DNA of 64,000 nucleotides from Escherichia coli (GTDB lineage Bacteria > Pseudomonadota > Gammaproteobacteria > Enterobacterales > Enterobacteriaceae), in NCBI RefSeq assembly GCF_044647545.1, contig NZ_CP172818.1. One strand, given 5' to 3'. The translations under genes and the position numbers were made by a program. Below the pieces are notes generated by a model. That model was not told the DNA's origin, did no database searches, and was given only the letters and a program-made list of their open reading frames with translations. Shown here one piece after another: positions 23,566 to 34,024 of this stretch (within the stretch, counting starts at the first letter, position 1; every line of letters begins with the position of its first letter).

Positions 23566-23620
23566 AGCATTGCCGGATGACGCGTCAGGCGCGCGATTGC
23601 CTGATGCGTTGTTAGCGTCT

Positions 23621-24547
23621 CTACAGCGCCCGCCAGCACCGGATCTCACGTCCGTCCTCCCTTATTGTTAATGATTGCCGGACTTTACACCCGTGGGTTG
23701 CCAGAGGGCAACGTTCACGGAAAAAACAGCCTTGTGGCAACGTGCGGTTTCCTGGTAGATCCGTTTTACGTAATGCCCATTCTTCCTCCAGCGGTTTATC
23801 AATGGCGGGGAGGGAATCCAGCAATAATCGGGTGTATGGATGTGCCGGAGCTGTCAGCACCTGTTGCGCGTCTCCTAGTTCCACAATCTGTCCGAGATAC
23901 ATCACCGCCACCCGATCGCTCATATGACGTATCACCGAGACATTGTGTGAAATCAGCACATAAGTCAGCCCGCGATTTTCCTGTAGCGTTACCAGTAAAT
24001 TGAGGATCTGCGCCTGCACGGAGATATCCAGCGCCGAGGTTGGTTCATCAAGCACAATCACGTCAGGCTGCGAAGAGAGTGCTCTGGCAATGGCGATACG
24101 TTGCCGCTGCCCGCCTGAGAACGCATGGGGCAAGCGGTCGAGATACTCCGGACGAATACCCACCTGCACAGCCAGCTCCTCTGCCAACGCTCGCCGCTGT
24201 TGTTCACTACTACGCTTAGCAATCCAGAGCGGTTCCGTGATGATGCGCCACACCGGTAAGCGCGGATTAAGCGAAGAGAGCGGGTCCTGAAACACCATCT
24301 GCATAATGCGTTGTGATCCTGAACGGATGTACTGCCCGTGGCTCGGTTGCAGCATACCCATTAAAAGCTGTGCGAGGGTGCTTTTGCCGCAACCTGACTC
24401 ACCGACGATCCCTAAGGTTTCACCACGACGGATCTGTAAATCAATACCATTGATGGCATGAACATGTTCCGTAGTTTTACCAAGCCAGTTTTTTCGGGCC
24501 GGGAAATTGATATGGACGTCGCGTAACGTTAATAACGTGTCAGACAC
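23621..24547 (-). CDS. ddpF: dipeptide ABC transporter ATP-binding protein
   Basis: Trimmed to the GTG at 24547-24545, which has a GCAGGAGG RBS and overlaps the ddpD stop; 308 aa; Walker A GESGCGKS. Confidence 0.85.
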   Translation of the reverse strand: MSDTLLTLRDVHINFPARKNWLGKTTEHVHAINGIDLQIRRGETLGIVGESGCGKSTLAQLLMGMLQPSHGQYIRSGSQRIMQMVFQDPLSSLNPRLPVWRIITEPLWIAKRSSEQQRRALAEELAVQVGIRPEYLDRLPHAFSGGQRQRIAIARALSSQPDVIVLDEPTSALDISVQAQILNLLVTLQENRGLTYVLISHNVSVIRHMSDRVAVMYLGQIVELGDAQQVLTAPAHPYTRLLLDSLPAIDKPLEEEWALRKTDLPGNRTLPQGCFFRERCPLATHGCKVRQSLTIREDGREIRCWRAL

Positions 24548-25526
24548 TAATGACCTCCTGCTGAGGATACCAACAGGCGCAGCGGTGGTTGTTGTCACCA
24601 CACGCTGTTAGCGCCGGGACGTTTTCACACTGCGCACCTGCCGCATAGCAACGATCGCGAAAAGCGCAGCCGTCAGGCAAATGGGTGAGGTTTGGTACCG
24701 TCCCTGGAATGGCGGGTAATGGCTGGCGCGGTATTCCATGTTCCGGTGCGCATTGCAGCAAACCAATGGTATACGGATGCCGGGGATGATGGATAACGTC
24801 TGCCGTCACGCCGCTTTCAATCACGCTTCCGGCATACATCACGTAAACGCTATCGCACAGTTGCGACACCACGGCCATATCATGGCTGATGAACAGTACC
24901 GCAGTTCCACTGGCGCGGGCTTTATGTTTAAGCAGACGCAGTACCTGCAACTGTACCGTGACGTCCAGCGCCGTAGTCGGTTCGTCGGCAATAATCAATT
25001 GCGGCTCGCAGGAGAATGCCAGCGCAATCATTACCCGCTGGCGCATACCACCTGAAAGCTCAAACGGATAGCGCGACATAACTTCCACGGCATCCGGGAT
25101 TTGCATCTCTTCCAGCAGGGCAATCGCTTTAGCTCTGGCTTCCCGACGACTTATTGGTTGATGATGGCGGATCACGTCCATCATCTGAAGACCTATTCGA
25201 CGTGTCGGATTGAGGGCGGTCATCGGTTCCTGAAAGATCATCGCCACTCGTGCGCCGCGCCACTGACGAAGCTGCTTTTCCCGAGCGTTAAGAACATCTT
25301 CTCCCAGCAGTGAAATATGTCCCCGATGTACGCAATAACTGCCCGTCGGTAGCAGACGCATAATCAACATTGCAGTGACTGATTTACCCGAGCCGGATTC
25401 TCCCACCAGACCGACAATTTCACCGCGGTTGATTTTCAATGACACATTGTTGAGCGCGTGAACGTCGCCGTTAAAACCGGGGAAACTCAAATGCAGTTGT
25501 TGAATGTCCAGAACGGGTTGGGTCAT
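24540..25526 (-). CDS. ddpD: dipeptide ABC transporter ATP-binding protein
   Basis: 328-aa ORF; Walker A GESGSGKS. Confidence 0.9.
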   Translation of the reverse strand: MTQPVLDIQQLHLSFPGFNGDVHALNNVSLKINRGEIVGLVGESGSGKSVTAMLIMRLLPTGSYCVHRGHISLLGEDVLNAREKQLRQWRGARVAMIFQEPMTALNPTRRIGLQMMDVIRHHQPISRREARAKAIALLEEMQIPDAVEVMSRYPFELSGGMRQRVMIALAFSCEPQLIIADEPTTALDVTVQLQVLRLLKHKARASGTAVLFISHDMAVVSQLCDSVYVMYAGSVIESGVTADVIHHPRHPYTIGLLQCAPEHGIPRQPLPAIPGTVPNLTHLPDGCAFRDRCYAAGAQCENVPALTACGDNNHRCACWYPQQEVISV

Positions 25527-26419
25527 GACTGCTTTCCTCCTGCTTTCGGGTCAAGCAGATCGCGAATACCATCGCCAAAGAGATTAAACCCGACGGCGGT
25601 AAGCAAAATCGCTGCCCCCGGAAATGCGCAATACCACCATTGATCGAGCACATAGTTGCGACCATTCGCCACCATCGCCCCCCATTCAGCACTCGGTTGT
25701 TGAGCACCAAGGCCAATAAATCCCAACGTGGCGGCCATTAAAATCGCGCTACCGATATCCAGCGATGCCTGCACAATCAGCGGCGGCAGGGAGTTACGTA
25801 AAATATGCCAGTTGATCAGATGCCAACGCGACGCACCAAAGGTTTTCGCCGCCTGAACATAGGTATACTGGCGAACAACTAATGTTTGCCCCCGCGCCAG
25901 GCGCACATAAAAGGGAATTCGCACAATAGCAATCGCCAGCATGGCGTTAAACAAACTCGGCCCGAGAGCGGCTGCCAGTGCCATTGTCAGTACCAGCGAA
26001 GGAATCGACAGCATAATGTCCATGATGCGCATGATAATCGCGTCTGCGCGTCCGCCAAGCACACCGGATAGACACCCGAGTAGCGACCCCATCATACCTG
26101 CAATGGCGACCACCACTAATCCGGCGAGAATTGATTGCTGACTGCCGACCAGTACGCGGCTGAACAGATCGCGTCCCACTTCATCGGTGCCAAACCAGTG
26201 CGCCGCAGAAGGCGGCAAAAGGCGGGCGGTTAAATCAATGGCGTTGGGATCATGCGTCGCCAGCCACGGTGAAAAAATCATCATCAATAGCATTAATACA
26301 ATGATGACTGCGCCGGTCACGGTGAGCGGGCTGCCTTTCAGCATCGATACCAGTTTTGCACCGTTAAATCGCGTTTGTTTTTGTGGGCGTACGGCGGACG
26401 TTTCCTCGCTTAGCATCAT
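25523..26419 (-). CDS. ddpC: dipeptide ABC transporter permease
   Basis: 298-aa membrane ORF; 4-nt overlaps with neighbours. Confidence 0.9.
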   Translation of the reverse strand: MMLSEETSAVRPQKQTRFNGAKLVSMLKGSPLTVTGAVIIVLMLLMMIFSPWLATHDPNAIDLTARLLPPSAAHWFGTDEVGRDLFSRVLVGSQQSILAGLVVVAIAGMMGSLLGCLSGVLGGRADAIIMRIMDIMLSIPSLVLTMALAAALGPSLFNAMLAIAIVRIPFYVRLARGQTLVVRQYTYVQAAKTFGASRWHLINWHILRNSLPPLIVQASLDIGSAILMAATLGFIGLGAQQPSAEWGAMVANGRNYVLDQWWYCAFPGAAILLTAVGFNLFGDGIRDLLDPKAGGKQS

Positions 26420-27438
26420 TCACCACCTCCACGTCCGATACGCGGATCAATCCACAAATAGAGCAAATCCACCACCAGGTTCACCAGCACATAAGCAAAT
26501 GAAACCACGACGGCAAAGCCCATCACTGCCGGGAAGTCGAGCGCCTGTATTGATGTTACTACCCATGCACCCATTCCGGGCCAGGCAAAAACGGTTTCGG
26601 TGAGCACTGCGCCATACAACAAATCGCCCAGCGCCAGTCCCAATACGGTAATCGAGGGGATCAACGCATTGGGTAGCGCATAACATAAAACGATATACCA
26701 GCCGGGCAAGCCGCTGGCCCGGGCGGTACGAATGTAATCTTCACTCAATTGTTCCAGCATAGCTGAGCGGATCTGGCGGGCGACAATCCCCAGGTGAACG
26801 AACGCCAGCGTTAATGCCGGTAAGATAAGATGTTGCAACGCATTGAAGAAGACCTCACCGTTGCCTTCAAGCAGCGCATCGAGCAGATAAAAGCCGGTAA
26901 CGTGCGTTGGTGGATCCAGCCAGTCATCAAGCCTTCCGCCGCCGGGAAGAATTTGCAGATGACCATAAAACAGCACAATGACGCCCAGCCCAAGCCAGAA
27001 CGCAGGTGTGGAGATTCCGGTAATGGCCATTATTCGCACCAGATGATCCAGCCAGCGATTTCGCCAGACTGCAGAGAGTATGCCCAACGGGATGCCAATC
27101 AGGAGTGCCAGCAGCAGCGCGCAAAATGCCAGTTCCAGCGTCGCCGGGAAAAATATACGCAACTCTTCCAGCACCGGACGCCCGGTACGAATGGATGTTC
27201 CCAGGTCACCCTGAAACAGATCGCTGACGTAGCGGTAAAACTGTACGTACAGTGGCTGGTCCAGCCCCAGTTGCTGGCGAATATTTTCCACGATAGCATC
27301 GCTGGCGCGGTCACCCGCCAGTAACCGCGCCGGATCGCCAGGGATCAGGTGCGAGATAATAAACGTAATCACGCAGACGCCCGCCACCACGAGCACCAGC
27401 CCCCAGCAGCGTTGGCGTAAAATACTCCAGAAGGTCAC
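26416..27438 (-). CDS. ddpB: dipeptide ABC transporter permease
   Basis: 340-aa membrane ORF. Confidence 0.9.
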   Translation of the reverse strand: MTFWSILRQRCWGLVLVVAGVCVITFIISHLIPGDPARLLAGDRASDAIVENIRQQLGLDQPLYVQFYRYVSDLFQGDLGTSIRTGRPVLEELRIFFPATLELAFCALLLALLIGIPLGILSAVWRNRWLDHLVRIMAITGISTPAFWLGLGVIVLFYGHLQILPGGGRLDDWLDPPTHVTGFYLLDALLEGNGEVFFNALQHLILPALTLAFVHLGIVARQIRSAMLEQLSEDYIRTARASGLPGWYIVLCYALPNALIPSITVLGLALGDLLYGAVLTETVFAWPGMGAWVVTSIQALDFPAVMGFAVVVSFAYVLVNLVVDLLYLWIDPRIGRGGGE

Positions 27439-27439
27439 G

Positions 27440-28990
27440 TTATTTACTCATAGTATTGATATTGAAGACCTGTTCCAGCATGGGATTGAACACAAAGCCT
27501 TTCACCTCTTTGTTCATCGCCAGTTGATAGTTTTTCTGGAACAGGTACACATAAGCAGCGTCATCAATGACGATTTTCTGTGCCTGCTGGTAGTCCCGGG
27601 TACGCTGCGTCTGGTCGGTGGTCGCTAGCGCATTGCGCAGTAACTTATCGACCTCACTGTTTTCATAGAACGAGCGGTTACCCGGCAGACCTTTTTTGTC
27701 GGACTCAAACCAGTAATTCATAAACATATACGGGTCGGCAAAATCCGGACTCCAGTTGCCAATCGCGATGTCGTAATCACCTTTACCCACTCTGTCGCGC
27801 ATGGTGGCGTTCGCCAGCTTTTCCAGCTTCACATTGATGCCCAGCTTGTTGAGACTGGATTGTGTCGCCAGAGCAATAGGCTCCCAGTTCGGATCATTAT
27901 CAGAATAGAGAAACGTCAGGCTGGTGGGTTTGCTCGTCACTTTATCCCATTCGGCTTTGGCTTTCGTTTCGTCATGGTTGTATTGCATTGCCGTCGCATC
28001 GTATCCCCACATGCCTTCCGGAATCGGGCCGCGCATTTGTTTTCCGTTACCACTCAGAATGCCGTTAACCATACCCTGATAATCGGTAGACCAGGAAATG
28101 GCCCGACGCAGATCCGCCTGATTAAGTGGCGCTTTGCTGTTATTCAGATACAGATAGGTGACGCGCAGTGACGGATACTCTGCCACGTTGACTTTGTTTT
28201 CCTGCTTCAGGGCGTTGAGTTGATCCACCGGCAGCGCATCGGCAATGTCAATGTCGCCACGGGAGAGCTGCAGGCGACGGGAAGCACTTTCACCGATAAT
28301 TTTTACCGATACCCGTTTGAAATTCGGTTTATTGCCGGGGTAATGCGGATTTGGCACCAGAACTAATTGCTGACCTTTTTGCCAGCTTTTCAGCATAAAC
28401 GGTCCGGAGCCAGCGGTATTTTGCGCGAGGAAACCACGGGCATCATCCGCCGCATGCTCCTTTAAGACCGCCGGATTGATAATGGATGCACCGTCATTCG
28501 CCAGCGTGTAGAGGAACGGTGCGAATGGCTGGCTAAGGGTAAACTTCACCGTATGTTCGTCGGGAGCATCAATCTTTAAATCTTTGGGAAATGCTTCTGC
28601 TGGCCCCTGACCGATTTTTAGTAACCGCTCAAAAGAGAGTTTTACTGCTTCGGCAGTGACGGGTGTGCCATCGGCAAATTTAGCGTCGTTCTTCAGGGTG
28701 AACGTCCACTCTTTTTGATCGTCAGACGCTTTCCAGCTACTCGCCAGATCGCCTTCAACGTCGGTTGAGCCTTTATCACCGTCCGTTTTGTACTGAACCA
28801 GTCGCTGATAAGACGGGTAGGTCACTGTCCAGTCGTTATTATCAATTGTCACCGCTGGGTCGAGGGTTTGTGGGTCGGCAGCTTTACCGATCACCAGCAT
28901 ATCTTTCGGTACGGCGGCGTGCGCAACCGGCATTGTTGTGGCAAGGACGATCGCGAGCAATGTAGGACGAAACGATATCGATCTCTTCAT
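27440..28990 (-). CDS. ddpA: periplasmic D-Ala-D-Ala dipeptide-binding protein
   Basis: Trimmed to MKRSISFRPTLLAIVLATTMPVAHA (ATG at 28990-28988), 516 aa with a signal peptide; the track ORF would overlap ddpX. Confidence 0.9.
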   Translation of the reverse strand: MKRSISFRPTLLAIVLATTMPVAHAAVPKDMLVIGKAADPQTLDPAVTIDNNDWTVTYPSYQRLVQYKTDGDKGSTDVEGDLASSWKASDDQKEWTFTLKNDAKFADGTPVTAEAVKLSFERLLKIGQGPAEAFPKDLKIDAPDEHTVKFTLSQPFAPFLYTLANDGASIINPAVLKEHAADDARGFLAQNTAGSGPFMLKSWQKGQQLVLVPNPHYPGNKPNFKRVSVKIIGESASRRLQLSRGDIDIADALPVDQLNALKQENKVNVAEYPSLRVTYLYLNNSKAPLNQADLRRAISWSTDYQGMVNGILSGNGKQMRGPIPEGMWGYDATAMQYNHDETKAKAEWDKVTSKPTSLTFLYSDNDPNWEPIALATQSSLNKLGINVKLEKLANATMRDRVGKGDYDIAIGNWSPDFADPYMFMNYWFESDKKGLPGNRSFYENSEVDKLLRNALATTDQTQRTRDYQQAQKIVIDDAAYVYLFQKNYQLAMNKEVKGFVFNPMLEQVFNINTMSK

Positions 28991-29003
28991 GACAGTTTCC
29001 TGA

Positions 29004-29585
29004 TTAACTGGCGTGCTGTGTGCCAGGGGATATAAAACAGGTGAATTGATCAGCGAGAAGTGGGTAACTCGCTGCCTGGGGTAATTCGAAGTGCCACCAT
29101 TCGCTCGGGATACCGACAAAGCCACCGCCAGTCATAATCGCATTCAGCAACAGCCGATTGCGCTGAGCAGCTGGCGGGACGGAAGGGTGATAAGCATGGG
29201 AACGTTCGTGCATTTCATCGAACTCTGCACCCATATCCAGTATGTTCCCGTGCTCATCACGAAGCGTCAGGTCGATCGCCGTGCCACGGCTGTGATTAGA
29301 ACCGACCGCCACATCAACAACATATTGCGGGTCTGGGCAGGCTTGCCACAACATCGCCTGTGCTTGTTGTGGGCGATACGCATCGTAAATCACCAGTTGT
29401 AAGCCTGACAGCTGGGCGATACTGATACTTTTCGCCAGCGCGGTAATCGCATCCTTGTGTAACAGACAACGCGCTTGCTGATAAATAGCTTTGCCTGTGA
29501 TGTTATCAGCGCAGGCGTATTTCAATTCGATCTCCAGATCAGGGAAGATCACGGCTAAATCAACCAGTTCGGTGGTATCCGACAT
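29004..29585 (-). CDS. ddpX: D-alanyl-D-alanine dipeptidase (VanX homologue)
   Basis: 193-aa ORF; first gene of ddpXABCDF. Confidence 0.92.
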   Translation of the reverse strand: MSDTTELVDLAVIFPDLEIELKYACADNITGKAIYQQARCLLHKDAITALAKSISIAQLSGLQLVIYDAYRPQQAQAMLWQACPDPQYVVDVAVGSNHSRGTAIDLTLRDEHGNILDMGAEFDEMHERSHAYHPSVPPAAQRNRLLLNAIMTGGGFVGIPSEWWHFELPQAASYPLLADQFTCFISPGTQHAS

Positions 29586-29810
29586 AAACGGTTCCTGTAT
29601 AAGACAAAAATTGCTGCGCTTTCCGCTTATGCAGATCTCATGCCACGCCGGGATAAGCGCCAGAATGCTGGCTTAAAGTTATATTTTTTAACTTTTGATC
29701 AACATTTGTGCAGCGTAGTGCAGTTTTGGTGCAAGAGGGGAAGTTAAGGAAGGAATCTCCCGGAATCGTAGCTGAAATCACAGTATTTAAGTGACAGTGT
29801 CACGTTAAAG

Positions 29811-29830
29811 GAAAACCCGCGAGTGCGGGC
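29811..29830 (-). terminator. putative rho-independent terminator after dosP
   Basis: On the minus strand, cccgcactcgcggg hairpin followed by tttt, just 3' of the dosP stop. Confidence 0.5.
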
Positions 29831-29842
29831 GAGAGGAATTTG

Positions 29843-32242
29843 TCAGATTTTCAGCGGTAACACACTGCTCATCCAGCCTGGAATTTCTTCGGCGGGTAGG
29901 GGGCGGGAAAAGAAATATCCCTGAATAACGCGACAGTGGATCTTGCGTAGCATCTCAAATTGCTCTTTGGTTTCGACGCCTTCCGCCACGACGGTTAAAT
30001 TAAGGCTTTGCCCAATGCTGGTAATGGCTTCAAGTAAGGCAAGGATGCGTTTTTCCGTCAGACAACGATCGACAAAACTTTTGTCAATTTTGATTTCCGT
30101 TACCGGAAGACTGACTAAGCGGGATAATCCGGAAAAGCCCGTGCCAAAATCATCTACCGATAAGCCCACGCCCATATCGCGCAGGATCTGAATGCGCTTA
30201 AAGATTTCGGTATCGTGTTCCATCATCATGCTTTCCGTGATTTCTACCGTCAGCTGGTGGCCGTCAATACCCCAGGCTTGCATTGCATCAGACACCTGAT
30301 TAGGCAGCTGATTACTGCGAAAGTGCAGCGCCGACAAGTTCACGGATAACGCCGGGATATGAATATTCTGGCTACGCCATTCTGCTAACTGACGGCAAGC
30401 TTCCGCGATGACCCAGCGTCCAATATTTTCGATTTCACCGATCTCTTCTGCGAGAGGAATAAACCGTGAAGGGGGCACATGACCATGCAGGGGATCGTGC
30501 CAGCGAGCAAGGGCTTCGATGCCGTACAGTTCACCCGTTTCTGCGAAGATTTGTGGCTGGTAAACCAGTTTCAGTTGGTTATTGCTAATTGCTTCTTTCA
30601 GCGCCGCGCCTAAAACCAAACGCTCTTTTACCATTTCGTTCATCGCCGGGCTGAAGAACTGCCAGCCGTTACCGCCATTTTTGCGAATAAAATCCATTGC
30701 ATTGTGAGCAGTGGAGAGCAGGTAATCGCGGTTTTTACCCACGTCGTAGCTGATGCCAATGCTCAAGGTGAGCGGGAATGGTTTATCGTCAATCATTATC
30801 GGCTTGCTGACCACATTCCGTAGCTCATCGGCGATCTGCGTAATGTTACTGACGTCGTTTTCGAGGCTCACGAGGACAAACTGCGTACCTTCGATACGAC
30901 AGAGATATTGATCCGGTTTGAGTTTTTCACGAAAGCGATTGACCACTTCCAGCAATGCCTGATCGGCCCACGCATAGCCAAGGCTATCAATCACATCCTG
31001 AATATGGTCAACACCGATGAGATACACCACTGGAGAGACGGCTTTGTCGACCAGGTCATCGAGGTAATTGTGCAGGTTATTGCGATTTGGCAGACCGGTC
31101 ATCGGATCAAATTGGATGAGTTGTTCAATATGCTGACGGCTTTTTTCCTGTTCCAGCGCCAGCGCGGCCATATGCTGGCTGATATCTGCCACGCGTTCGA
31201 TAAAGGCGCTGGTTTCTGCTCCTGACGAGGTTTTAATTTGCAGGATCCCCGCCGGCGCGCCATCACGCTGACGAATGGTCGCTGACCAGCTTTGCGCATT
31301 TTGAACTTCTGTACCGTGCGAAGATGACGCCCAGTGTATCGGCATCCCGTTGCGCAGCGCGTACAGCGAAACATGCGATTCGTTGAGTACAGATTCGATG
31401 TTACGACAAATGATTTCCCCCATTTCATGAAATGGCGGGCTGCTGCACATGGCGGCGAGAATATTGCCTTCAAGCTGGCGGATTTGCCGTTCTTCGGTGA
31501 TATCCGAGAAGGTCATTACCAGGTTCTGCAGATGCGCGAGCACGTCATAAACCGGGCTGATAGAGGCTTTAATCCAGATTTTTTCACCGGTGCGCGTCAA
31601 TAGCAGAAATTCGTCCTGATCGCGGGCGGTTTTCCATAGCAACTGTTGTAAACGAATGCGGTTATCGGCAGGGAATTCAGGAATGTTCAGGAGTGTATCG
31701 GGCTGCATACCGCTGGCTTCGCTAATGCAGTAACCAAACATTTCGGTAAATGCGCGATTGCACTGCACAATATGGCGTTCCGGATCGAGGACAATCACCG
31801 GTCGGTCGAGATGGTCAACGGCAATAATCAATTGTCGGGTCTGTTCTTTTTGCGCCATTTCTACGCTGGCATCCCGTACCAGCGCCAGGTAATAAATTTT
31901 ACCCTCGGCGCTCACTTTCGATAGCGCAAAACGGGTCCAGATTTTACTGCCGTCTTTTTTCTCCAGCTGCAGCTCCCGACTCATCCCCTCGACGCGCGCT
32001 TTACCGCCTTCACGGTTATGACGAATATATTCAGGATGCGCAGGACGCAAATCCCGCGGAATCAGCATATCAATGTTATTGCCAATGACTTCTTCACGTT
32101 TGTACCCCCAGAGCTTCTCTGCGGCGGGGTTGAAAAACATCACTTCATCATTTTCGTTAATTAACACCGCACCCATCATATTTTGCTCAAGGGCGGGGAA
32201 AAAAATGCCATCGGCGGCATTATCCGCATCGGTTAGCTTCAT
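29843..32242 (-). CDS. dosP: oxygen-sensing c-di-GMP phosphodiesterase (heme-PAS, GGDEF-like, EAL)
   Basis: Trimmed to MKLTDADNAADG (ATG at 32242-32240), 799 aa. Confidence 0.92.
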   Translation of the reverse strand: MKLTDADNAADGIFFPALEQNMMGAVLINENDEVMFFNPAAEKLWGYKREEVIGNNIDMLIPRDLRPAHPEYIRHNREGGKARVEGMSRELQLEKKDGSKIWTRFALSKVSAEGKIYYLALVRDASVEMAQKEQTRQLIIAVDHLDRPVIVLDPERHIVQCNRAFTEMFGYCISEASGMQPDTLLNIPEFPADNRIRLQQLLWKTARDQDEFLLLTRTGEKIWIKASISPVYDVLAHLQNLVMTFSDITEERQIRQLEGNILAAMCSSPPFHEMGEIICRNIESVLNESHVSLYALRNGMPIHWASSSHGTEVQNAQSWSATIRQRDGAPAGILQIKTSSGAETSAFIERVADISQHMAALALEQEKSRQHIEQLIQFDPMTGLPNRNNLHNYLDDLVDKAVSPVVYLIGVDHIQDVIDSLGYAWADQALLEVVNRFREKLKPDQYLCRIEGTQFVLVSLENDVSNITQIADELRNVVSKPIMIDDKPFPLTLSIGISYDVGKNRDYLLSTAHNAMDFIRKNGGNGWQFFSPAMNEMVKERLVLGAALKEAISNNQLKLVYQPQIFAETGELYGIEALARWHDPLHGHVPPSRFIPLAEEIGEIENIGRWVIAEACRQLAEWRSQNIHIPALSVNLSALHFRSNQLPNQVSDAMQAWGIDGHQLTVEITESMMMEHDTEIFKRIQILRDMGVGLSVDDFGTGFSGLSRLVSLPVTEIKIDKSFVDRCLTEKRILALLEAITSIGQSLNLTVVAEGVETKEQFEMLRKIHCRVIQGYFFSRPLPAEEIPGWMSSVLPLKI

Positions 32243-32266
32243 AATTACCTCTGCATCCTGACGCAT

Positions 32267-33649
32267 CTAAAGACTGGCTTTCCAGAGTTCAACACGGTTT
32301 CTACCTCGTCTTTTGGCGATATACAGAGCTTCATCGGCTATTTGAATGAGGCGCTCATAGTCAGGATGACCATTAAACATGGCGGCACCGATGGAAAGTG
32401 AGAGGGCAATATCCTCGCCGTTTGCGGCTTTCAGTTTGGTTTTCTCCACCCGACTGCGAATACGTTCTGCGGTACGTAACGTTTCGTTTTCCGAAGCTTC
32501 AGTCAAAACAATGATAAATTCATCGCCACCGTAGCGGAAAACATAATCACTACTGCGGACGTTGTCATAAAAGGCCTGAGAGACTTTACGCAGAATTTCA
32601 TCGCCAGTGTTATGGCCCCACGTATCGTTGATCTCTTTGAATTTATCAACGTCAATAATCAGCACTGACAGCGGTGTACCGGTCCGGTTGGCATGGGCAA
32701 TTTCGCGTTTGAAGATCGTCGGCAGGAAACGACGGTTAAGTAATTTCGTCAGGACATCCATACCGACTTCGTGGCGCGATACTTCTTCAAACAATTCACG
32801 CAGCAAGGTAATAATTTGCGATACGGTATTTCTTATCTGTAATAAAAATTTCACCCGTAAACTTCTGTTATTCAAATTCCTGGTGTTACGCATGGTTTGA
32901 TTGAAAATACCGTCGAAATCCTGAATCAGACGGGAGATATGGCCCACTTCGGCAATGCCGCTAAAATAATGTCGACCTTTATGGTTAAACCACAGGCCAA
33001 AATCAGCCTGGCTTAAAGGCAAACTACTGCCTAAATCAGAATCCAGCAGGACTTTATAGATAATATCTATTTCCCATGAAAGTATTGAGGCTATTTGCCG
33101 TTCTTTTTCTTCTTCGGCATTTTCCAGTAACGAGAAGATACGATAGTTTTCATCTTCCTTTGAGGCACTACTGTCACTAAAGGTAAACGCGCGGGTCATC
33201 ACTTCCATAGCGATATCAATACTGTTAATAGAGAAATGGTAGACCTGAAGTTTTTCTGCGGCGGAATAATCCGAAGAGAAGATGACCGGATAGAGGATTT
33301 TTTTCAGCACCCGAAACCCCATCTCGACAATTTCTACCGGAATTCCTATGCGGGCATGCACTTCCGCGACGGTATGCTGGATTTGTATTAGCCTTTCGAC
33401 ATCGTCAACCTGGGCAGAAAGCACGTTAATAATCCAGCGTTCCATCGCACTTTTCAACTGCCGCTCAACTTGTTCATTACTCAAGAATTCTTCGGCATGT
33501 GGGTCGATACGGACAATTCGATAAAACTCAATACTCAGATAATGAGCATGCGCAACGGCAATTTCCGCGGCTTTAGCACGAATGAGCGGATCTGCTTGTT
33601 CGACAAGCCCGGTCCACTCATCTTTCATTCTTTTAAAATACATCTCCAT
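32267..33649 (-). CDS. dosC: oxygen-sensing diguanylate cyclase (globin-coupled sensor, GGDEF)
   Basis: 460-aa ORF with a RYGGDEF motif; 24 nt upstream of dosP. Confidence 0.92.
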   Translation of the reverse strand: MEMYFKRMKDEWTGLVEQADPLIRAKAAEIAVAHAHYLSIEFYRIVRIDPHAEEFLSNEQVERQLKSAMERWIINVLSAQVDDVERLIQIQHTVAEVHARIGIPVEIVEMGFRVLKKILYPVIFSSDYSAAEKLQVYHFSINSIDIAMEVMTRAFTFSDSSASKEDENYRIFSLLENAEEEKERQIASILSWEIDIIYKVLLDSDLGSSLPLSQADFGLWFNHKGRHYFSGIAEVGHISRLIQDFDGIFNQTMRNTRNLNNRSLRVKFLLQIRNTVSQIITLLRELFEEVSRHEVGMDVLTKLLNRRFLPTIFKREIAHANRTGTPLSVLIIDVDKFKEINDTWGHNTGDEILRKVSQAFYDNVRSSDYVFRYGGDEFIIVLTEASENETLRTAERIRSRVEKTKLKAANGEDIALSLSIGAAMFNGHPDYERLIQIADEALYIAKRRGRNRVELWKASL

Positions 33650-34024
33650 AATTCACACCCTTATAAGGCTGGGAAAGCAGACGGAATCAAAACGAAACGC
33701 AACGTGCGAGATCGACTAACTGCACCATACTCTCCTGAAATATGAAGATATACTGAAAACAAATAAGCGACTTAGGACAGTTTCAATCTACGCTACTGTT
33801 CTTCAGAAGAGTATAGCCCATCGTAATTATTTTTCGGTGACAGCGAATATCGTATGTTTTTTCATGTTCATACATTTTTATTAGGGGATTTATGACTGTT
33901 TAACTAAGTGTGGTTAATTGCGTAGTTAATTTGACTTAAGTAAGCATGATTACTAGTGGGATATTTCAAGAGGGTAACAAGCCGGGGGGAAAGCACCGGC
34001 TTGTTACAAAGTAAGAATGGGAGT

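Follow-up and report, generated by a model that had tools for sequence, protein, structure and literature searches.

The region directly upstream of ddpX in the window analysed here (the whole 64-kb stretch of DNA under study, to which all coordinates refer) is, with a probability we put at about 0.9, the sigma-54-dependent, NtrC-activated promoter of the Escherichia coli ddpXABCDF operon. Sequence, together with published ChIP and gel-shift data, establishes that Eσ54 binds a -24/-12 element at 29630-29646 and that NtrC occupies the promoter region in nitrogen-starved cells. Such a promoter is already known at this locus, and the initial annotation, made from the sequence of the window, was real and correctly interpreted; the sole correction concerns the framing of the NtrC sites. 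The surrounding DNA is E. coli chromosome with the gene order dosP-ddpX-ddpA, and a 601-bp query from it finds 100% identity in many RefSeq E. coli genomes, which annotate this DNA as dosP and ddpX. In the list of open reading frames, dosP occupies 29843-32266 and ddpX, the D-alanyl-D-alanine dipeptidase gene that opens ddpXABCDF, occupies 29004-29585, both on the minus strand, with ddpA downstream of ddpX. The DdpX product matches NCBIfam NF007557 (D-alanyl-D-alanine dipeptidase) at 331 bits, the cutoff being 176. The A of the ddpX ATG is at 29585 and is preceded by a short 5' UTR (29586-29618, minus) with a ribosome-binding region, ACAGGAA, at 29592-29598, which in the form TA(T/A)ACAGGAA(C/A)CGT aligns with the stretch preceding ddpX in Citrobacter. 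On the distal side, a terminator scan located a dosP terminator-like hairpin, GCCCGCACTCGCGGGT, followed by a T run (29815-29830, minus), which stands between the ddp promoter region and the upstream dosCP operon and is kept in E. coli strains that have no ddp genes.

The sigma-54 element, GTGGCATGAGATCTGCA, lies on the minus strand at 29630-29646, an assignment that draws on sequence, weight-matrix score, identity to a ChIP-seq site and an orthologous motif in other genera. The stretch TGGCATGAGATCTGCA (29645 to 29630) is found exactly where a minus-strand match had been annotated, and the distance to the ddpX ATG, given there as roughly 45 nt, measures 44 nt. Its GG at 29644-29643 (-25/-24) and its GC at 29632-29631 (-13/-12) are separated by exactly the 12 bp of the TGGCAC-N5-TTGCW frame, the spacing that had been claimed. 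From this geometry the transcription start is predicted at 29619, corresponding to about 1563110 in NC_000913.3 and 34 nt before the ATG (which would then begin at +35), in agreement with the distance of 34 in Table 1 of Bonocora et al.; no mapped start for ddpX was found in the literature examined. A sigma-54 weight matrix built from 41 intergenic ChIP-seq sites of the same authors, with ddpX left out, ranks the element first in the window at 16.15 bits, close to the median of its training sites (16.02 bits) and well within their range (8.75-21.54 bits). For the loose pattern TGGCA-N7-TGCA the window has two occurrences where 1.17 would be expected, and the 16.15-bit score is attained in 16 of 40 dinucleotide-shuffled versions of the 64 kb. 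By sequence statistics the motif is thus not beyond chance in 64 kb, the letters by themselves being suggestive only, and the weight rests on its position near a gene start and on outside evidence. The TGGCATGAGATCTGCA stretch is invariant in four Escherichia sequences; compared with K-12, the window carries G for A directly 5' of TGGCAT (29646) and differs at one base further upstream, and is otherwise the same. Base 29646 is A in K-12 and most relatives, and both G and A variants occur in metagenomic E. coli contigs.

The outside evidence is substantial. Bonocora et al. (2015) list a minus-strand sigma-54 ChIP-seq site, OS16, upstream of b1488 (ddpX) and flag it as previously predicted; its sequence, ATGGCATGAGATCTGCA, is identical to the window element except for the first base, which is A in K-12. 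The same promoter was predicted by Zhao et al. (2010) from arrays with rpoN deletion and overexpression, in which ddpX rose 2.7-fold with sigma-54 overexpression and fell 2.1-fold in the rpoN deletion. An NtrC ChIP-seq peak from nitrogen-starved cells (peak 6) was assigned to ddpXABCDF by Brown et al. (2014), who cite earlier expression analysis, and 'RpoN NtrC' are given as the known regulators of ddpXA by Dong and Schellhorn (2009). Shimada et al. (2021), who treat ddpX as a known NtrC/RpoN target, report that purified NtrC and Eσ54 each shift a ddpX probe and supershift it together, that two or three Eσ54-probe bands form with it, and that ddpX mRNA rises about 104-fold on nitrogen depletion, from which they conclude that RpoN and NtrC are needed; the nitrogen-limitation induction that had been invoked for ddp is thereby borne out. 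Their probe primers map to 29509-29917 of the window, a fragment of 409 bp. The ddpX promoter of K-12, represented by OS16 and NtrC peak 6, is the same locus and sequence as in the window, and nothing of substance differs. Given these ChIP, array and gel-shift data, the sigma-54/NtrC interpretation of this DNA is both correct and already in the literature. The original assignments of ddp nitrogen control are reportedly those of Zimmer et al. 2000 and Reitzer & Schneider 2001.

Locating the NtrC sites themselves is less straightforward. The NtrC peak of Brown et al. (2014) maps to 29586-29666, over the promoter and not over the candidate sites described below; in the same table the glnA peak (4056061-4056141) lies at or below the centre of the glnA sigma-54 motif (4056149), while our scan puts the glnA NtrC sites 80-113 bp upstream. 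Because glnA shows the same displacement, the resolution is too low for the ddpX enhancer to be placed from the peak, and this route was abandoned. The published NtrC consensus is a 17-bp dyad, TGCACCAnnnTGGTGCA, and we collected reference sites by scanning 300 bp upstream of eleven K-12 Ntr promoters, which recovered the expected sites at glnA, glnH, nac, astC, rutA, glnK, yhdW and patA. All of them share a TGC-N11-GCA frame (TGCA spacing of 13 bp), and pairs are often 20-22 bp apart. The initial annotation had proposed two NtrC-like TGCA dyads at 29708-29733. Both plus-strand strings, tgcagcgtagtgca (29709-29722) and tgcagttttggtgca (29719-29733), are indeed there; however, their TGCA spacings are 10 and 11 bp (TGC-N8-GCA and TGC-N9-GCA) against the 13 bp of the reference frame, so that the location holds and the dyads as framed do not.

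No GC-N11-GC frame, and hence no canonical dyad, occurs anywhere in the ddpX enhancer block; in the canonical 17-bp frame the region yields three overlapping matches of 9-10 of the 14 consensus positions. Two of these we designate site A (TGCACCAAAACTGCACT, 29717-29733, minus; centre near -106, 9/14 matches, 7.2 bits) and site B (TGCACAAATGTTGATCA, 29696-29712, minus; centre near -85, 10/14 matches, 5.8 bits). They are 21 bp apart, each with one good and one degenerate half-site; site A combines a perfect distal half, TGCACCA, with a degenerate proximal one, and its left half is conserved across genera. Against a weight matrix trained on 13 K-12 sites, A and B are the best 17-mers inside the gel-shift probe and fall at the place first annotated, yet both score under all 13 reference sites (10.7-20.2 bits), and 33-71 positions in the window score as high or higher. 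A cluster of three TGCAC half-sites on one strand, spanning no more than 30 bp, is unique in the window; of 300 shuffles, 9 contain one. The centres of A and B would lie on the same helical face and at least ~70 bp upstream of the predicted start. Across species the distances from site to promoter, which are not independent of one another, have a periodicity of about 10.8 bp (R = 0.595, reached by 40 of 5000 random sets), a suggestive fit to a face-of-helix requirement. In the literature examined we found neither a footprint or mutational mapping of NtrC on the bases of A and B nor a base-level definition of the ddpX sites, and a full-text search for the enhancer sequence returned no relevant paper. 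A and B are probably the NtrC sites of ddpX, supported mainly by canonical NtrC sites at orthologous positions in other genera.

The enhancer block also contains CTTGCACCAAAACTGCA (29719-29735, minus), the fourth-best sigma-54 weight-matrix match in the window at 12.9 bits. We rejected it as a second sigma-54 site: TG replaces the near-invariant GG, and its -12 part reads TGAA in most genera.

The ddpX arrangement may be compared with established Ntr promoters. At rutAp, astCp, glnKp and patAp two 17-bp NtrC-type sites lie 20-22 bp apart upstream of a sigma-54 promoter, as do the ddpX sites with their 21 bp; in contrast to these, neither ddpX site has the second GC of the TGC-N11-GCA frame, their scores are lower, and their two good half-sites point in the same direction. 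The classic NtrC enhancer, that of glnAp2, comprises in our K-12 scan two strong sites (13/14 and 12/14) and two weak ones, each with one good half, TGGTGC. Half-site-like NtrC sites therefore do occur at a genuine Ntr promoter, although a strong dyad is missing at ddpX, where all the sites are of the weak type. A likeness in layout is also seen with glnHp2, which has clustered, close or overlapping NtrC sites within ~110 bp of the -24 element; those sites, however, are canonical (11-13 of 14 matches), unlike the ones at ddpX. The glnHp2 promoter is also reported to depend on IHF; at ddpX, by contrast, inspection of the stretch between enhancer and promoter gave no convincing match to the IHF consensus. 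That stretch does contain an A/T-rich tract, AAAGTTAAAAAATATAACTTTAA (29673-29695, minus), whose composition would be compatible with an intrinsic bend that aids looping.

The strongest argument for sites A and B comes from other Enterobacterales. A genome search with DdpX returned 80 loci. A sigma-54 motif directly upstream of ddpX, at a comparably short distance, was seen only in Escherichia and one metagenome-assembled genome, with weaker or more distant matches upstream of ddpX in three other genomes. Direct comparison of ddpX-upstream DNA across genera failed because another gene precedes ddpX outside Escherichia: in most other genera (L004-L081, for example L005 at 596-1483 and L017 at 622-1485; metagenome loci L096-L161) an ORF of ~288 aa stands there, encoding a protein of the MurR/RpiR family whose best NCBIfam match, SapR, is under the curated cutoff. 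A sigma-54/NtrC control region homologous to that of E. coli is found in front of this regulator gene. A DNA-pattern scan of metagenomes detected, before the regulator ORF, the same enhancer block, TGCACCAAAA[CG]TG[AC]ACTACGCTGCACAAATGTTGATCA, about 80 nt upstream of a TGGCACGCGTC[CA]TGCA promoter, and the analysis was repeated on loci gathered by DdpX homology, which are free of DNA-pattern bias. More than 60 species of Enterobacterales, ranging from Citrobacter to Serratia, Pantoea, Brenneria and Rahnella, have the regulator gene preceded by a sigma-54 motif of 12.5-18.6 bits at a constant distance of 56-60 nt, or 73 nt in Serratia. When these regions are aligned, conservation is seen in the enhancer block, in the -24/-12 element and, in genera other than Escherichia, in a third element, the palindrome TGTTAAT-N4-TAACA.

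It is at the enhancer positions of this alignment that canonical NtrC sites appear. Aligned with site B in other genera are TGCACAAATGTTGTGCG (13.3 bits), TGCCCAATTGTTGTGCA (13.3), TGCACCGATTTTGTGCA (15.8) and TGCACCTTCATTGTGCA (14.5); sites aligned with A reach 10.4-12.5 bits in Brenneria, Mixta and Lonsdalea; and the sites that the K-12-trained matrix finds at aligned enhancer positions also include TGCACCAACATGGATCG (12.5 bits) together with TGCACAAATTTTGCGCT (11.2 bits). Altogether, sites of 10-18 bits occupy aligned positions in Serratia, Raoultella, Pantoea, Brenneria, Lonsdalea, Mixta and Huaxiibacter, and 28 of 67 sequences have an NtrC site of at least 10 bits, whereas of 63,984 background positions 12 score 10.1 bits or higher. 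Since relatives carry canonical sites there, the E. coli block is best read as two NtrC sites 21 bp apart, the promoter-proximal halves of which appear to have degenerated (TTGATCA versus TTGTGCA in relatives). The middle TGCAC of E. coli reads TGAAC in most genera, so that a set of three repeats is not the conserved unit.

Two alternatives deserve consideration, both improbable. The somewhat better of them accepts the sigma-54 promoter as real and holds that the TGCAC block is bound mainly by another protein, either a different enhancer-binding protein or a local regulator, with NtrC acting through weak contacts or from solution. The poor match of the block to the NtrC matrix would fit this, as would its conservation: about 40 bp, including the ACTACGC between the half-sites, are near-invariant in Escherichia, Citrobacter and Enterobacter, tighter than two degenerate NtrC sites seem to need. 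It is opposed by the canonical NtrC sites that more distant genera carry at aligned positions, by the shift of the ddpX fragment with purified NtrC alone together with the cross-linking of NtrC at the locus in vivo, and by the finding that the gel-shift fragment contains no better NtrC-like sequence; we therefore consider it a poor competitor of NtrC binding at A and B. Less probable again is a model in which most ddpX expression comes from a sigma-S or sigma-70 promoter of this intergenic region, the sigma-54 element being secondary. An RpoS-dependent stationary-phase induction, said to have been described by Lessard et al. 1998, would count in its favour. So would the listing of ddpXA among RpoS-dependent genes of E. 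coli O157:H7 (Dong and Schellhorn 2009) and one published report of ddpX down-regulation in a cya mutant. However, a consensus scan of 29500-29900 found no sigma-70-type promoter, the sole promoter that RpoD gSELEX lists here is internal, between ddpA and ddpB, and the ~100-fold response to nitrogen limitation has been ascribed to RpoN and NtrC; RpoS may exert its effect indirectly. That the -24/-12 match is a functionless chance occurrence, as the shuffles would by themselves allow, is already refuted by the published binding data, with ChIP-seq occupancy, rpoN-dependent expression, the gel shift and a conserved position in more than 60 species all against it.

On the well-established model of NtrC action, the preferred reading, an NtrC-activated sigma-54 promoter, would work as follows. 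Eσ54 would form a closed complex at the -24/-12 element, and under nitrogen limitation phosphorylated NtrC would bind the two weak sites at about -106 and -85, two helical turns apart. There it would oligomerise and reach the closed complex by looping across the A/T-rich tract, and its ATP hydrolysis would open the promoter, with transcription starting near 29619. By annotation the operon encodes an ABC transporter for D,D-dipeptides and a D-Ala-D-Ala dipeptidase; acting together, they would take up D-Ala-D-Ala and cleave it, the dipeptide being in this proposed role a scavenged source of nitrogen and carbon.

Some further features of the intergenic region may be recorded. Dam sites (GATC) are present at 29634-29637, in the spacer of the sigma-54 element, and at 29697-29700, in the degenerate half of site B, in numbers not above expectation. 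An inverted repeat, GCCAG-CATT-CTGGC (29659-29672, minus), lies just upstream of the -24 element, and Enterobacter has a different, GC-rich dyad (GCGGGT-TTTC-ACCCGC) in its place. A conserved hairpin of the GCCAG-N4-CTGGC type at these coordinates was considered and set aside as not robust, the median z-score being -0.8 and only 13 of 67 sequences falling below -2. About 45 bp upstream of site A is an element AATGTGA...ACG.A.TC (29764-29783, minus), conserved with Citrobacter and Enterobacter; it is reminiscent of half a CRP site or of a broader inverted repeat, which in Enterobacter reads GTGAA-N13-TTCAC. Between the dosP terminator and the ddp genes stands a perfect 13-bp palindrome, GTGACACTGTCAC (29791-29803, minus), which shows no variation among four Escherichia sequences and has been kept by strains without ddp.

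The comparison also bears on how the E. coli control region came about. Outside Escherichia the palindrome, in the form TGTTAAT-N4-(G/A)TAACA, lies immediately 3' of the -12 element (for example at ~5623-5640 of L096) and overlaps the predicted start; it is likely the operator at which the RpiR-family protein acts. The E. coli window does not contain it, having TAAGCGGAAAGCGCAGCAAT at 29629-29610, and the regulator gene is absent from E. coli and from the metagenome-assembled genome L037. We looked for a remnant of that gene in the E. coli ddpX 5' UTR and discarded the idea, as only the ribosome-binding region aligns. The ancestral unit may have run from a sigma-54/NtrC promoter through a TGTTAAT-N4-TAACA operator over the start to a gene for a SapR-like member of the MurR/RpiR family and then ddpX. 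We would give an even chance that the E. coli region is a stripped-down descendant of this ancestral Enterobacterales unit, with ddp under nitrogen status alone and with room for a second factor. Without the regulator gene and its operator, ddp in Escherichia would respond only to nitrogen status; and as the NtrC sites of E. coli have decayed to half-sites and are nonetheless invariant, a second factor could read the block.

Within E. coli the promoter appears to share the fate of the operon that it serves. Among 5390 complete E. coli genomes, 1175 (~22%) have a match to no more of the intergenic region than the ~78 nt nearest dosP, and these appear to be without the whole ddp module. In the two ddp-less genomes examined (L093 and L094) dosP is followed directly by osmC, with ~66 bp between them. 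Alignment of these loci to the window by blastn delimits the module, comprising enhancer, promoter and ddpXABCDF, to 23610-29763 (minus). On the upstream side it ends 30 bp past site A, so that enhancer and promoter are present or absent together with the operon, in keeping with the preferred reading. In both of these strains, as compared with 32432-33690 of the window, dosC is only a fragment, annotated as an incomplete diguanylate cyclase, and in one of them dosP is frameshifted.

For E. coli biology these results change nothing: they confirm an Ntr promoter of textbook type. To this they add, modestly, a base-level proposal for two NtrC sites that are weak in E. coli and canonical in other genera. 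The comparative results, namely an RpiR-family regulator and operator missing in Escherichia and the decay of the NtrC dyads, are likewise modest additions. From the perspective of the family, the control of D-Ala-D-Ala dipeptidase genes by sigma-54 and NtrC appears to be of ancient standing in Enterobacterales, and to be accompanied outside Escherichia by a local regulator of the RpiR family.
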